From Escherichia coli (lineage in GTDB: Bacteria; Pseudomonadota; Gammaproteobacteria; Enterobacterales; Enterobacteriaceae): 57,407 bases of DNA. Of the stretch, positions 1 to 33,102 are shown in pieces (position 1 is the stretch's first letter; each line of letters opens with the position of its first letter). Made by a program: the position numbers and the translations under genes. Below the pieces are notes generated by a model. The model saw only the letters and a program-made list of their open reading frames with translations. It searched no databases and had not been told where the DNA came from. The stretch lies in the NCBI RefSeq assembly GCF_003334315.1, contig NZ_QOWR01000028.1; one strand, given 5' to 3'.

Positions 1-108
1 GTAGCGCGGTGGTCCCACCTGACCCCATGCCGAACTCAGAAGTGAAACGCCGTAGCGCCGATGGTAGTGTGGGGTCTCCCCATGCGAGAGTAGGGAACTG
101 CCAGGCAT
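1..108 (+). rRNA. rrfD: 5S ribosomal RNA, 5'-truncated by window edge (first ~12 nt missing)
   Basis: Sequence identical to the second complete 5S copy at 234-353 from its 13th base onward; ends in ...GGGAACTGCCAGGCAT. Confidence 0.95.
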
Positions 109-120
109 CAAATTTAGCGT

Positions 121-196
121 GCTGATATGGCTCAGTTGGTAGAGCGCACCCTTGGTAAGGGTGAGGTCCCCAGTTCGACTCTGGGTATCAGCACCA
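121..196 (+). tRNA. thrV: tRNA-Thr (GGT anticodon context CUUGGUAAG), 76 nt with encoded CCA
   Basis: GCTGATATGGCTCAGTTGGTAGAGCGCACCCTTGGTAAGGGTGAGGTCCCCAGTTCGACTCTGGGTATCAGCACCA: cloverleaf with GGT anticodon and T-loop GTTCGACTC; sits between two 5S genes as in rrnD. Confidence 0.95.
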
Positions 197-233
197 CTTT
201 TTAGGTTAAAGTTCGGCAGATTAGAAAAGAATT

Positions 234-353
234 TGTCTGGCGGCAGTAGCGCGGTGGTCCCACCTGACCCCATGCCGAACTCAGAAGTGAAACGCCGTAG
301 CGCCGATGGTAGTGTGGGGTCTCCCCATGCGAGAGTAGGGAACTGCCAGGCAT
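234..353 (+). rRNA. rrfF: 5S ribosomal RNA, complete 120 nt
   Basis: TGTCTGGCGGCAGTAGCGCGGTGGTCCCACCTGACCCCATGCCGAACTCAGAAGTG...GGGAACTGCCAGGCAT canonical enterobacterial 5S. Confidence 0.96.
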
Positions 354-27517: not shown

Positions 27518-30500
27518 GTGAGGCGATTGCCGGGGATTTTACTGCTTACTGGAGCCGCGCTCGTTGTGATCGCTGCCCTGCTGGTTAGCGGCCTGCGTAT
27601 TGCTTTACCGCATCTTGACGCCTGGCGTCCGGAAATCCTCAACAAAATAGAATCCGCGACTGGCATGCCGGTTGAAGCCAGTCAGCTCTCAGCCAGCTGG
27701 CAGAATTTTGGCCCGACGCTTGAAGCACACGACATCCGTGCAGAACTAAAAGATGGCGGCGAATTTTCGGTTAAACGCGTTACTCTGGCGCTGGATGTCT
27801 GGCAGAGCCTGTTACATATGCGCTGGCAGTTTCGCGATCTCACTTTCTGGCAGCTGCGCTTTCGCACCAACACTCCTATCACCAGCGGTGGTAGCGATGA
27901 CAGTCTGGAAGCCAGCCACATCAGCGATCTGTTTCTTCGTCAATTTGACCATTTCGATCTCCGCGACAGTGAAGTCAGTTTCCTGACGCCATCCGGTCAG
28001 CGCGCCGAGCTGGCGATCCCACAACTCACCTGGCTGAACGATCCACGTCGACACCGTGCGGAAGGTCTGGTAAGCCTCTCCAGCCTTACCGGACAGCACG
28101 GCGTAATGCAGGTGCGCATGGATTTGCGCGATGATGAGGGCTTGTTAAGCAATGGTCGCGTCTGGCTCCAGGCGGATGACATCGACCTGAAGCCGTGGCT
28201 CGGTAAATGGATGCAGGACAATATTGCGCTGGAAACGGCGCAGTTCTCCCTTGAAGGCTGGATGACGATCGATAAAGGCGATGTAACCGGTGGCGACGTC
28301 TGGCTGAAACAGGGCGGTGCCAGCTGGTTGGGCGAGAAGCAAACGCATACGCTGTCGGTGAATAATCTGACCGCGCATATTACGCGTGAAAATCCGGGCT
28401 GGCAGTTCTCTATTCCCGATACACGGATCACGATGGACGGCAAACCCTGGCCGAGCGGAGCATTGACGCTAGCCTGGATACCGGAACAGGACGTTGGCGG
28501 CAAAGACAATAAACGCAGTGACGAACTCCGGATTCGCGCCAGTAATCTGGAGCTGGCAGGCCTGGAGGGCATACGCCCGCTGGCCGCGAAACTTTCACCT
28601 GCACTGGGTGATGTTTGGCGCTCCACACAACCGAGCGGCAAGATTAACACTCTGGCGCTGGATATCCCGCTTCAGGCGGCAGACAAGACCCGTTTTCAGG
28701 CATCGTGGAGCGATCTGGCCTGGAAGCAATGGAAATTATTACCGGGTGCGGAACACTTCTCCGGGACGCTTTCCGGCAGCGTTGAAAATGGTTTGCTTAC
28801 CGCGTCGATGAAGCAGGCAAAGATGCCTTACGAAACGGTATTCCGTGCGCCACTGGAAATCGCCGACGGCCAGGCAACTATAAGCTGGCTGAACAATGAC
28901 AAAGGTTTCCAGCTGGATGGGAGTGATATTGACGTTAAAGCCAAAGCCGTCCATGCGCGCGGCGGTTTTCGTTACCTGCAACCTGCTAACGATGAACCCT
29001 GGCTGGGTATTCTGGCTGGCATCAGTACCGATGATGGTTCACAAGCCTGGCGCTATTTCCCGGAAAACTTGATGGGTAAAGACCTGGTTGATTACTTAAG
29101 TGGCGCGATTCAGGGCGGTGAAGCGGATAACGCGACGCTGGTTTATGGTGGCAATCCGCAACTCTTCCCCTATAAACACAACGAAGGTCAGTTTGAAGTG
29201 CTGGTGCCGCTGCGCAACGCGAAGTTTGCCTTCCAGCCGGACTGGCCTGCATTAACTAACCTTGATATTGAACTGGACTTTATTAACGACGGTTTATGGA
29301 TGAAAACCGATGGCGTTAATCTGGGCGGCGTGCGCGCGAGTAATCTCACCGCAGTGATCCCTGACTACTCGAAAGAAAAACTGCTGATTGACGCTGACAT
29401 TAAAGGTCCGGGTAAAGCCGTTGGCCCTTACTTTGATGAGACACCGCTGAAAGATTCTCTGGGGGCGACCCTGCAAGAACTCCAGCTCGACGGCGATGTG
29501 AATGCTCGCTTACATCTTGATATCCCGCTGAACGGCGAACTGGTAACCGCGAAAGGTGAAGTGACGCTGCGTAATAACAGTCTGTTTATCAAACCACTCG
29601 ACAGCACCCTGAAAAATTTGAGCGGTAAATTCAGCTTTATCAATAGCGATCTGCAAAGTGAACCACTGACAGCAAGCTGGTTTAATCAGCCGTTGAACGT
29701 GGATTTTTCCACCAAAGAAGGGGCAAAAGCCTACCAGGTAGCGGTAAACCTCAACGGTAACTGGCAACCGGCGAAAACCGGCGTTCTGCCTGAAGCGGTG
29801 AACGAAGCATTGAGTGGCAGCGTGGCGTGGGATGGTAAAGTGGGCATTGATCTGCCTTATCATGCTGGTGCGACCTATAACATAGAGCTGAACGGCGATC
29901 TAAAGAATGTGAGCAGTCACTTACCTTCACCGTTAGCCAAACCTGCGGGTGAACCACTAGCGGTAAACGTTAAGGTTGATGGCAATCTCAACAGCTTTGA
30001 ATTAACCGGACAGGCTGGTGCGGATAATCATTTCAATAGCCGCTGGTTGCTCGGTCAAAAGCTGACGCTCGACCGTGCTATTTGGGCGGCAGACAGTAAA
30101 ACGCTCCCGCCGTTGCCGGAACAAAGTGGTGTTGAACTCAATATGCCGCCGATGAATGGTGCCGAGTGGCTGGCCCTGTTTCAGAAAGGTGCGGCGGAGA
30201 GTGTCGGTGGTGCAGCGAGTTTCCCACAACACATAACGTTACGTACGCCTATGTTGTCGCTGGGAAATCAGCAATGGAATAACCTGAGTATTGTTTCGCA
30301 ACCGACGGCAAATGGCACCCAGGTTGAGGCGCAAGGGCGTGAAATCAACGCCACGCTGGCGATGCGTAATAACGCGCCGTGGCTGGCGAATATCAAATAT
30401 CTTTATTACAACCCGAGCGTGGCGAAAACTCGTGGTGATTCAACGCCGTCATCACCTTTCCCGACAACGGAGCGCATTAACTTCCGTGGCTGGCCGGACG

Positions 30501-31318
30501 CACAAATACGATGCGCAGAGTGCTGGTTCTGGGGGCAAAAATTCGGTCGTATTGACAGTGATCTCACCATTTCTGGCGATACATTAACGCTGACCAATGG
30601 ACTGATTGATACTGGTTTCTCGCGGCTTACTGCCGATGGTGAATGGGTTAATAATCCGGGGAATGAACGTACCTCGCTGAAAGGAAAACTGCGCGGGCAG
30701 AAAATTGATGCCGCCGCAGAATTTTTTGGTGTCACGACGCCCATACGCCAGTCGTCATTTAATGTGGATTACGATTTACACTGGCGCAAAGCACCCTGGC
30801 AGCCAGATGAAGCGACGTTGAATGGCATCATTCATACTCAACTGGGTAAAGGCGAAATTACCGAAATCAATACCGGACATGCCGGGCAATTGCTGCGCTT
30901 ATTGAGCGTAGATGCCCTGATGCGTAAGCTGCGTTTTGATTTCAGAGACACTTTTGGCGAAGGGTTCTATTTTGACTCCATTCGCAGCACCGCGTGGATT
31001 AAAGACGGCGTTATGCACACCGACGACACGCTGGTGGATGGCCTGGAGGCGGATATCGCCATGAAAGGGTCGGTAAATCTGGTACGTCGCGACCTGAATA
31101 TGGAAGCGGTTGTCGCACCAGAGATTTCTGCGACGGTGGGCGTGGCTGCGGCTTTTGCGGTTAACCCCATTGTTGGCGCGGCAGTGTTTGCCGCCAGTAA
31201 AGTGCTGGGGCCGCTGTGGAGCAAAGTCTCCATTTTGCGCTATCACATTTCGGGTCCGCTGGACGATCCGCAAATCAACGAAGTGTTGCGCCAACCGCGT
31301 AAAGAAAAAGCGCAATGA
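27518..31318 (+). CDS. yhdP: AsmA-like large envelope-spanning protein (phospholipid transport to outer membrane)
   Basis: 1266 aa; single N-terminal TM anchor then long periplasmic region. Confidence 0.95.
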   Translation: MRRLPGILLLTGAALVVIAALLVSGLRIALPHLDAWRPEILNKIESATGMPVEASQLSASWQNFGPTLEAHDIRAELKDGGEFSVKRVTLALDVWQSLLHMRWQFRDLTFWQLRFRTNTPITSGGSDDSLEASHISDLFLRQFDHFDLRDSEVSFLTPSGQRAELAIPQLTWLNDPRRHRAEGLVSLSSLTGQHGVMQVRMDLRDDEGLLSNGRVWLQADDIDLKPWLGKWMQDNIALETAQFSLEGWMTIDKGDVTGGDVWLKQGGASWLGEKQTHTLSVNNLTAHITRENPGWQFSIPDTRITMDGKPWPSGALTLAWIPEQDVGGKDNKRSDELRIRASNLELAGLEGIRPLAAKLSPALGDVWRSTQPSGKINTLALDIPLQAADKTRFQASWSDLAWKQWKLLPGAEHFSGTLSGSVENGLLTASMKQAKMPYETVFRAPLEIADGQATISWLNNDKGFQLDGSDIDVKAKAVHARGGFRYLQPANDEPWLGILAGISTDDGSQAWRYFPENLMGKDLVDYLSGAIQGGEADNATLVYGGNPQLFPYKHNEGQFEVLVPLRNAKFAFQPDWPALTNLDIELDFINDGLWMKTDGVNLGGVRASNLTAVIPDYSKEKLLIDADIKGPGKAVGPYFDETPLKDSLGATLQELQLDGDVNARLHLDIPLNGELVTAKGEVTLRNNSLFIKPLDSTLKNLSGKFSFINSDLQSEPLTASWFNQPLNVDFSTKEGAKAYQVAVNLNGNWQPAKTGVLPEAVNEALSGSVAWDGKVGIDLPYHAGATYNIELNGDLKNVSSHLPSPLAKPAGEPLAVNVKVDGNLNSFELTGQAGADNHFNSRWLLGQKLTLDRAIWAADSKTLPPLPEQSGVELNMPPMNGAEWLALFQKGAAESVGGAASFPQHITLRTPMLSLGNQQWNNLSIVSQPTANGTQVEAQGREINATLAMRNNAPWLANIKYLYYNPSVAKTRGDSTPSSPFPTTERINFRGWPDAQIRCAECWFWGQKFGRIDSDLTISGDTLTLTNGLIDTGFSRLTADGEWVNNPGNERTSLKGKLRGQKIDAAAEFFGVTTPIRQSSFNVDYDLHWRKAPWQPDEATLNGIIHTQLGKGEITEINTGHAGQLLRLLSVDALMRKLRFDFRDTFGEGFYFDSIRSTAWIKDGVMHTDDTLVDGLEADIAMKGSVNLVRRDLNMEAVVAPEISATVGVAAAFAVNPIVGAAVFAASKVLGPLWSKVSILRYHISGPLDDPQINEVLRQPRKEKAQ

Positions 31319-31382
31319 TTTGACGAGGGCGCGTAATTGCCCCAATCTCATAGGATAATCGTTGCCAAAGGCCAACGAGCCA

Positions 31383-31615
31383 GAACATAACCGTAGGTCG
31401 GATAGGGCGTTCACGCCGCATCCGGCAGCCGTTGCCTGATGCGACGCTGTGCGTCTTATCAGGCCTACAAACGGAACATAACCGTAGGTCGGATAAGGCG
31501 TTTACGCCGCATCCGACAGCCGTTGCCTGATGCGACGCTGTGCGTCTTATCAGGCCTACAAACCGGAACATAACCGTAGGCTGGATAGGGCGTTCACGCC
31601 GCATCCGGCAGCCGT
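31383..31615. repeat. BIME: tandem array of REP (palindromic unit) elements, about 2.5 copies of a ~91-bp composite
   Basis: AACATAACCGTAGGTCGGATAGGGCGTTCACGCCGCATCCGGCAGCCGTTGCCTGATGCGACGCTGTGCGTCTTATCAGGCCTACAAACGG repeated at 31383, 31474 and 31565 (last truncated). Confidence 0.92.
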
Positions 31616-31641
31616 AAAAAATCCTCTACTGCAGTAACTAA

Positions 31642-33102
<1,461 letters not shown>

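Follow-up and report, generated by a model that had tools for sequence, protein, structure and literature searches.

REP and BIME-2 arrays have been on record since the 1980s and 1990s. Newbury and colleagues reportedly found in 1987 that REPs stabilise upstream mRNA, Espeli, Moulin and Boccard are said to have described transcription attenuation associated with BIMEs in 2001, and the degradosome-dependent removal of REP-stabilised fragments reportedly goes back to Khemici and Carpousis in 2004. By definition, a BIME-2 is built of y and z2 REPs that alternate in tandem, and a BIME-1 of y and z1 REPs plus a long L linker in which an IHF site lies, present in a single copy; the number of BIMEs at a given locus is known to vary between strains (Ton-Hoang et al. 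2012, PMC3333891).

A described array with a function in gene expression is REP325, in which 12 y/z2 units between yjdM and yjdN stabilise the upstream mRNA, act as a partially Rho-dependent attenuator of the downstream gene and give rise to a ladder of hairpin-ended RNAs; genome-wide, tandem gene pairs with REPs show upstream-biased expression (Harris et al. 2026, bioRxiv 10.64898/2026.03.23.713779). At the DNA level, gyrase cleavage sites are enriched in BIME-2 elements, with y REPs being cut more frequently than z2 REPs, and blocking transcription with rifampicin raises the BIME-2 gyrase signal instead of lowering it (Sutormin et al. 2019, PMC6379681).

Here, we analysed the REP array between the co-directional genes yhdP and tldD of Escherichia coli in a window of 57,407 nucleotides, by which we mean the whole stretch of DNA under analysis. 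The feature is real, correctly located and essentially correctly named in the initial annotation, and it is already known both as a class and as a specific locus. Because the class has long been known and the locus is a published hot spot of gyrase cleavage, the array as first stated holds little new biology.

Architecture and class of the array

Tandem Repeats Finder reported one tandem array at 31369-31615 (period 91, 2.7 copies, 91% matches, score 424), and a repeat search placed three in-register copies from 31383, 31474 and 31566, with the two full units being 97% identical. Each 91-bp unit comprises two imperfect palindromes of opposite orientation, and the array as a whole consists of five REPs in the order y, z2, y, z2, y with alternating orientation. 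Between 31383 and 31615 it takes up 233 bp of the 338-bp yhdP-tldD spacer and leaves 41 bp to the tldD ATG. Thus, the tandem composite of about 91 bp with inverted REPs, filling most of the spacer up to some 40 bp before tldD, was seen much as it had been described. The features of the locus are as follows.

27518..31318, + strand: yhdP CDS, 1266 aa, the upstream gene (open reading frame list; RefSeq annotation of 100% identical DNA)
31319..31348, + strand: promoter-like motif TTTGACG-N9-AATTGCC-N-CA-NN-CT, directly past the yhdP stop and upstream of the REP insertion (fixed-spacing conservation)
31349..31392, no strand: probable relic of a degenerate y-tail/S-linker/z2 junction with tail-to-tail linker GAACATAACC (repeat family D2; partly by eye)
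31393..31427, + strand: y REP 1, starts with GTAG, 7-bp and 4-bp stems with a 2x2 mismatch (pattern match)
31428..31433, no strand: head-to-head linker GCCGTT, 6 nt, in S-type position (sequence)
31434..31468, + strand: z2 REP 1, inverted, ends with CTAC (pattern match)
31437, + strand, sense to yhdP and tldD: published dominant RNA 3' end, MG1655 3392339 (Adams et al. 2021 Term-seq)
31469..31483, no strand: tail-to-tail linker AAACGGAACATAACC (sequence)
31484..31518, + strand: y REP 2 (pattern match)
31525..31559, + strand: z2 REP 2, inverted (pattern match)
31576..31610, + strand: y REP 3, the last REP, kept in all alleles (pattern match, allele comparison)
31621..31656, + strand: ancestral tldD-proximal segment TCCTCTACTGCAGTAACTAACGAGTAGCAAAAACG with a weak Shine-Dalgarno-like GAGT (cross-genus conservation)
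31657..33102, + strand: tldD CDS, 481 aa, the downstream gene (open reading frame list; RefSeq: metalloprotease TldD)

The yhdP product is annotated by RefSeq as an AsmA2 domain-containing protein on 100% identical E. coli DNA. Two open reading frames inside the array (31275-31604, - strand, 109 aa; 31439-31573, + strand, 44 aa) were rejected as repeat-derived and are without RefSeq annotation. The stretch at 31349-31392 is probably a degenerate junction of y-tail, S-linker and z2 from which the z2 palindrome was deleted, followed by the linker GAACATAACC; its first part (31349-31366) shares 72% identity with CATCCGACAGCCGTTGCC of the repeat unit, and the rest of the relic was aligned by eye.

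Searching the 57-kb window with the REP core GCCKGATGCGRCG and at most one mismatch yielded five matches, all within the array, compared to 0.43 expected by chance, and five matches were reached in none of 100 shuffles. Searching with a degenerate pattern of the full-length REP, its loop fixed at 6 nt, gave no match because the loops of y and z2 REPs differ in length; the shorter core pattern worked. Typing of the units, based on literature consensus sequences and the Rfam y+z2 model, assigned three as y (matching GTAGG..GGATAGGGCGTTCACGCCGCATCCGGCA) and two as z2 (matching GCCTGATGCGACGCTGTGCGTCTTATCAGGCCTAC). On the + strand, y units open with GTAG and z2 units close with CTAC, and the REP-core matches alternate between the - and + strands. 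The head-to-head linker measures 6 nt and the tail-to-tail linker, of the form AAAC(C)GGAACATAACC, 15-16 nt; linkers of this short kind join the 2.7 tandem copies of 91 bp. In addition, the array is extragenic, lying wholly between the yhdP stop at 31318 and the tldD start at 31657 in a spacer for which RefSeq lists no CDS.

Judged from its sequence, the array is a canonical BIME-2 of E. coli, and typing, linkers and tandem copies thus narrow the original label of BIME to this subclass. It shares with the BIME-2 family (Gilson/Bachellier classification) the y/z2 alternation, short linkers, tandem repetition, the GTAG/CTAC ends, stem mismatches and a strain-variable copy number, and nothing substantive differs, linkers being compared by length. 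With BIME-1 (RIB/RIP, IHF site) it has in common only that REP pairs lie in intergenic DNA: BIME-1 has z1, a long L linker and a single copy, whereas the yhdP-tldD array has z2, a 6-nt linker and tandem copies, and neither a z1 REP nor an L linker with an IHF site was found in it. The IHF core WATCAANNNNTTR is absent from the array, and its nearest match in the window is at 40349. IHF binding, which the initial annotation had listed among the activities of BIMEs, belongs to the L linker of BIME-1 and does not carry over to this BIME-2.

REP number across strains and the spacer in other genera

The comparison of BIME copy number across strains, suggested together with the first description, was carried out as a survey of REP number over 5,426 complete E. 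coli genomes and a direct comparison of fetched alleles. REP number steps by two, that is, by one 91-bp unit, resulting in alleles of 1, 3, 5, 7 and 9 REPs with identical flanks.

1 REP, spacer of 155 bp: O157:H7, ST131 and Nissle 1917, also E. albertii; ~66% of genomes
3 REPs, spacer of 247 bp: OV2 and CP61_Sichuan; rare
5 REPs, spacer of 338 bp: the window, K-12 EMG2, WG1, MC1061 and GM4792, strain W, BL21(RP); ~2% of genomes
7 REPs, spacer of 429 bp: MG1655, BW25113, and W3110 by its published 307-bp length; ~32% of genomes
9 REPs, spacer of 520 bp: XL1-Blue, TOP10, Stbl4, Origami2 and BL21(DE3); at least 19 genomes

The genome counts are approximate, as they depend on how BLAST pieces are joined and as some assemblies may have collapsed or expanded the repeat; with this reservation, coverage statistics gave 1750 genomes with at least 7 REPs (5426 - 3676), 1852 with at least 5 REPs, which leaves roughly 100 for the 5-REP allele, and about 24 with at least 9 REPs. 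The remaining ~3,570 genomes (66%) carry 1 REP, rarely 3. An evenly spaced sample of 59 genomes agreed with these counts (7 REPs in 19/59, 5 REPs in 1/59 and 1 REP in 39/59), and a synthetic 9-REP query aligned from end to end in one piece in at least 19 genomes, with 100% identity in 15. The 3-REP alleles of OV2 and CP61_Sichuan are two distinct deletion products, indicating that the 3-REP state arose at least twice.

This allele series bears directly on the proposal of the initial annotation that the array must be either transcribed as the tldD leader or span the tldD promoter. For the latter, one might point to a strict scan for promoters and terminators, which detected neither in the yhdP-tldD spacer, the 41 bp next to the ATG included. 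Yet the distance between the identical flanks runs from 155 to 520 bp in 91-bp steps, which is incompatible with a -35 and a -10 element astride the array. The series of 1-9 REPs with constant flanks effectively refutes a promoter split by the array, and the REP-free spacers of related genera (see below) argue against it as well; we give this reading virtually no credence.

We further scanned species-representative genomes for TldD, covering 80 loci, and found the YhdP C-terminus upstream of and co-directional with tldD in 76 of them. In most Enterobacteriaceae (Citrobacter, Enterobacter, Kosakonia and others), the spacer measures 71-90 bp and is free of REPs; the tldD-proximal segment TCCTCTACTGCAGTAACTAACGAGTAGCAAAAACG is conserved there, for instance in Citrobacter and Enterobacter. 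Salmonella enterica subsp. diarizonae carries two separate REPs, which sit about 10 nt further downstream and thus point to an insertion event independent of that in E. coli. In Serratia, Yersinia, Photorhabdus, Xenorhabdus, Morganella and the Vibrionaceae, the two genes are separated by a gap of ~860 bp with an ORF of ~250-280 aa whose product looks like a C-N hydrolase (N-terminus, e.g., ...ALLQLCSG...TPENAL...). At the loci examined, the hydrolase ORF begins at the yhdP stop or overlaps it, and a few nt separate its end from tldD. This tight packing of yhdP, hydrolase gene and tldD suggests that the ancestral state was a packed co-directional cluster, most simply an operon. Because the 71-90 bp spacers of related genera are free of REPs, we take the REPs of E. 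coli to be a late insertion into the intercistronic remnant.

Gyrase cleavage, sense transcription and RNA folding

Gyrase binding, which had been put forward for BIMEs in general, is documented for this very locus, as the "tldD-yhdP BIME-2" was named as a top in vivo gyrase cleavage site by Topo-Seq (Sutormin et al. 2019, PMC6379681). In W3110, the element at 3393054-3393361 (307 bp) had 35, 13, 3 and 10 cleavage sites in four data sets (Table DS3, PMC6379681). The published element and the array described here are the same locus: the length of 307 bp matches the 7-REP allele, and the 5-REP allele of the window is one 91-bp unit shorter.

Regarding RNA, Term-seq in MG1655 identified a dominant RNA 3' end at 3392339 on the minus strand, classified as "orphan", with mean reads of 40,640 and 51,879 in two growth-condition tabs (Adams et al. 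2021, PMC7815308, Supplementary file 1); for comparison, the table gives 60,099 reads for the 3' end of mreB. We located the published 3'-end sequence, ATAACCGTAGGTCGGATAGGGCGTTCACGCCGCATCCGGCAGCCGTTGCC-T-GATGCGACGC, in the window. The table layout of 50 upstream bases, the end and 10 downstream bases was checked on the 5S rRNA row, in which position 51 is the last base of mature 5S, and on this basis the RNA end was assigned to 31437. This is 119 nt past the yhdP stop and 11 nt past the last paired base of the y REP 1 stem (31397-31426). With a 3' end inside it, the array is shown to be transcribed in the direction of yhdP and tldD, a stable RNA end being marked by the first REP. Sense transcription with an RNA 3' end just past a REP hairpin, as expected for an array of the REP325 type, was therefore found at 31437.

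Two points bear on how this end is to be read. Term-seq took only uniquely aligned reads, and ends at near-identical internal units could be missed, so that the restriction of the 3' end to REP 1 may be a mappability effect instead of biology. In addition, the high 3'-end count could stem from a short transcript starting at the conserved motif behind yhdP instead of from yhdP mRNA. Involvement of Rho at the spacer is not supported, as the table of Rho-termination regions has no entry in the yhdP-tldD spacer; its sites at these genes fall within yhdP and beyond the end of tldD (Adams et al. 2021, PMC7815308, Supplementary file 2).

Of the two options originally offered for the array, transcription thus stands, by virtue of the Term-seq end at 31437, and promoter spanning falls with the 1-9 REPs between constant flanks. 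The choice itself was incomplete, since it is just as possible that yhdP and tldD form an operon and that the array, lying between its two cistrons, is the 3' UTR of yhdP. In line with this, yhdP, the hydrolase gene and tldD are packed closely together in Serratia, Yersinia, Photorhabdus and Vibrio.

In folding predictions, RNA of a y REP alone reached -19.5 kcal/mol, with 7-bp and 4-bp stems and a 2x2 mismatch, and that of a z2 REP alone -20.9 kcal/mol (z = -5.5) as a single hairpin. A y+z2 pair folds into one long imperfect hairpin (-46.5 kcal/mol), and the entire spacer RNA reached -144.6 kcal/mol (z = -7.7 compared to shuffles). The Rfam model naRNA4 (RF02564) matched the + strand at 31396-31465 (71.1 bits) and 31487-31556 (77.3 bits), both above the gathering threshold of 59.5, and scored 50.8 and 55.8 bits on the - strand, under this threshold. 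These matches raise the question of whether the array gives rise to nucleoid-associated non-coding RNAs of the naRNA4 type, which would bind HU, bridge REP DNA and condense the chromosome. A nucleoid-condensing, HU-dependent function is claimed for REP325 by Qian et al. 2015 (PMC4550694). Harris et al. 2026 (bioRxiv 10.64898/2026.03.23.713779) dispute this claim, reporting no measurable nucleoid compaction by REP325/naRNA4 and no long-range contacts formed by REP-REP pairs. Although both y+z2 pairs exceed the threshold on the transcribed strand, the Rfam model in effect fits any y+z2 REP pair, and the ~66% of E. coli genomes with a single REP at the locus have no such pair at all. Together with the absence of compaction and contacts in the REP325 study, this makes a nucleoid-condensing role of the array highly improbable.

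Candidate tldD promoters and the role of the array

Directly past the yhdP stop, the motif TTTGACG-N9-AATT(G/A)CC-N-CA-NN-CT occurs with fixed spacing in 34 distinct sequences of Enterobacteriaceae and Erwiniaceae, although conservation of its TTTGACG part is partly by construction, because TTTGACG was the search anchor. Read as a promoter, the motif is a candidate with a near-consensus -35 (TTGACG), a 17-bp spacer and the hexamer CAATCT; the general form of this hexamer, CAnnCT, keeps the two most critical -10 positions (A2 and T6) and little else (-10 match of 2/6). In a lenient sigma-70 scan, the motif scored 7/12. All lineage-specific insertions, namely the E. coli REPs, the Salmonella REPs and the hairpins of Shimwellia and Erwinia, lie downstream of it. 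A hairpin within the motif had a mean z of -0.76 compared to shuffles of the variable 9 nt, and its pairing register shifts between genera.

We also compared the motif by eye with consensus sequences of alternative sigma factors, none of which was accepted. For sigma-32, an htpG-like arrangement (TTGA, 14 nt, CCCCA) is seen in E. coli, Citrobacter and Salmonella, but the T of CCCCAT is absent across genera. The GGAACTT of sigma-E is missing at the right distance, the GG/GC spacing of sigma-54 fits in E. coli only, and sigma-28 gave no fit. Supplements of SMRT-Cappable-seq, Kim 2012, Cappable-seq and Cho 2014 list no tldD or yhdP entry and no matching coordinates, and a literature text search returned nothing relevant on a tldD promoter, a yhdP-tldD operon or tldD with sigma-32.

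What the motif does decides what the array is: a tldD promoter would make the array the leader of tldD, and a 3' element of yhdP would make it the yhdP 3' UTR or an intercistronic element. In both cases the array is transcribed, as the Term-seq end demonstrates independently. Under the first option, a dedicated tldD mRNA would start near 31355 (predicted) and carry the array as its 5' leader, with the REP hairpins acting mainly as a leader attenuator; the end at 31437 would then be that of a prematurely ended leader RNA of ~80 nt, and tldD output would be set by REP number. Such a leader would account for a fixed-spaced motif in two families with invariant A and T at the key -10 positions, for every lineage-specific insertion falling downstream of it, and for 3'-end reads as high as those of mreB, although yhdP is a weakly expressed gene. 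The -10 match is poor, the invariant C at hexamer positions 1 and 5 is not preferred by sigma-70, the strict scan returned no promoter, the alternative sigma factors fit poorly in our by-eye comparison, and the motif could instead be a 3' element of yhdP. Taken together, we regard transcription of tldD from the motif as possible, but rather unlikely.

A second, weak candidate promoter lies at the tldD-proximal end of the array (31593-31622), with TTCACG in the loop of the last y REP, 18 bp and AAAAAT (31617-31622). In the lenient sigma-70 scan it scored highest of all sites in the spacer (8/12, including A2 and T6), and the last y REP and the A-tract are kept in all alleles from 1 to 9 REPs. 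From here, tldD would be transcribed from a start near 31629 by a promoter partly made by the last REP, and the array would be irrelevant to tldD expression; a start downstream of 31615 is also the outcome that the initial annotation had named as speaking against its own reading. This candidate is a consensus match under the threshold of the strict scan, and because its -35 is missing in REP-free genera, it cannot be the ancestral promoter. We thus consider it improbable as the source of tldD mRNA.

In the explanation that we favour, and which we hold to be probably correct, the array is a BIME-2 between co-directional yhdP and tldD that serves as a gyrase site, is transcribed in sense, acts as a REP325-like stabiliser and attenuator, and represents a domesticated or selfish insertion. 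At the DNA level, it acts as a strong, transcription-independent gyrase binding and cleavage site, as published for the locus. At the RNA level, sense transcription leads to an abundant, stable 3' end defined by the first y-REP hairpin. By analogy with REP325, the array would protect the upstream yhdP transcript from 3'-to-5' exonucleases and attenuate read-through into tldD, so that tldD would be partly uncoupled from upstream transcription. Units would be gained and lost by recombination or slippage between the 91-bp repeats, possibly with the REP-associated transposase TnpA-REP. The element would be a domesticated or selfish insertion and no essential regulator, since most E. coli carry one REP here and related genera none.

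The likeness to REP325 lies in a transcribed y/z2 array between tandem genes, with matches to Rfam naRNA4 and with hairpin-ended RNAs, and the dual role of upstream mRNA stabiliser and downstream attenuator is proposed for the yhdP-tldD array on this analogy. REP325 comprises 12 palindromic units and comes with direct deletion, Northern and bicyclomycin data, whereas the yhdP-tldD array has five units (1-9 across strains) and its expression role is drawn by analogy.

The same observations could also be explained by the array being selectively neutral selfish DNA, with gyrase cleavage and RNA 3' ends as by-products that have no effect on fitness or on yhdP and tldD. The absence of the array from related genera is in line with this, as are the single-REP allele being the commonest and the hypervariable REP number, which ranges from 1 to 9 and differs even between laboratory strains derived from K-12 and B. 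However, a strong in vivo 3' end and dense gyrase cleavage are real molecular activities, and REP-bearing tandem gene pairs are upstream-biased in expression genome-wide. Neutrality departs from our favoured explanation only on whether these activities matter for fitness, and we see it as a possible, if doubtful, alternative.

A bolder view takes the array as a heritable, fast-mutating dial on TldD, in which it is the leader of a transcript started at the motif and REP number sets how much transcription reaches tldD. This view would be noteworthy because TldD itself is linked to two gyrase poisons: it processes microcin B17, and it degrades CcdA, which is the antidote to CcdB. If the view were true, gyrase binding at the array could make read-through into tldD sensitive to supercoiling. 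We rate it as very improbable.

For E. coli biology, the motif after the yhdP stop adds an unannotated candidate promoter of tldD. The REP number at the locus is a cheap lineage marker, and reads from one strain are misplaced here if mapped to the reference of another. Finally, the natural series of 1, 3, 5, 7 and 9 REPs between identical flanks, which covers common laboratory strains (7 in MG1655; 5 in EMG2 and MC1061; 9 in XL1-Blue, TOP10 and BL21(DE3)), could serve to test the stabiliser-plus-terminator model without engineering.

Anchoring to MG1655 and RNA 3' ends

The window opens with RNA genes detected as Rfam hits, whose MG1655 counterparts are named thrV and rrfF (Adams et al., PMC7815308):

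Window 1-351, partial 5S rRNA, then tRNA, then complete 5S rRNA

These 5S rRNA and tRNA genes anchor the window on the MG1655 reverse strand at about 3.37-3.42 Mb, and the two coordinate systems agreed to within 2 bp. Supplementary file 2 of Adams et al. 2021 (PMC7815308) reports a bicyclomycin-sensitive (Rho-dependent) termination region within yhdP (MG1655 3395720; window about 28054, about 540 nt into the gene) and a further one downstream of tldD, on the strand antisense to aaeR (MG1655 3390148). In vitro, TnpA-REP cuts single-stranded DNA of z2 iREPs at TGCC|TGAT (Ton-Hoang et al. 2012, PMC3333891), and the mapped RNA 3' end, which follows GCCT at 31437, falls 1 nt from this site (window 31434-31438). 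This proximity is probably a coincidence.

REP number in laboratory strains

Comparing window 31383-31615 with the yhdP-tldD loci L001 and L004 and the genome matches H181-H198 revealed three REPs in OV2, five in EMG2, WG1, MC1061, and GM4792, seven in MG1655 and BW25113, and nine in XL1-Blue, TOP10, Stbl4, and Origami2. The B lineage itself is split, with nine REPs in BL21(DE3) and five in BL21(RP). REP number is either a quickly changing lineage marker, or the differences partly reflect assembly error.

The yhdP-tldD spacer in other genera

In Serratia, Yersinia, Photorhabdus, and Xenorhabdus, and likewise in Moellerella, Morganella, Grimontia, and Vibrio, an ORF of ~250-280 aa resembling C-N hydrolases occupies the interval, adjoining yhdP on one side and tldD on the other. 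Enterobacteriaceae and Erwiniaceae are without this gene, and what is left is the yhdP-tldD spacer of 71-90 bp. In Salmonella enterica subsp. diarizonae, the REP insertion lies downstream of the E. coli insertion point by ~10 nt, indicating that the spacer was colonised independently.

L032, L040, L041, L044, L048, yhdP stop to tldD, C-N hydrolase-like ORF
L060, L062, L065, L066, L069, yhdP stop to tldD, C-N hydrolase-like ORF
L011 1357-1500, two Salmonella-type REP palindromes (diarizonae spacer)

Sequences at the edges of the array

Window 31319-31348 (also L007-L059), first ~30 nt past the yhdP stop, conserved motif
Window 31593-31622, weak sigma-70-like match (TTCACG, 18 bp, AAAAAT; 8/12)

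Among Enterobacteriaceae and Erwiniaceae, 34 distinct sequences carry the non-coding motif, TTTGACG-N9-AATT(G/A)CC-N-CA-NN-CT, with its spacing unchanged, the conservation of TTTGACG being partly by construction since it served as search anchor. Its layout is promoter-like (-35 TTGACG, 17 bp, CAnnCT), and all insertions specific to single lineages lie downstream of it. The weak sigma-70-like match, whose -35 falls in the final y REP, within its loop, is kept in every allele, and a tldD start near 31629 would follow from it. Upstream of the array, window 31349-31392 is similar to a y-tail/GCCGTT/z2 junction that has decayed, with the z2 palindrome deleted, and such sequence is already there in single-REP strains and E. 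albertii. If this segment is indeed a decayed junction, the BIME-derived insertion exceeds the recognisable array in length.
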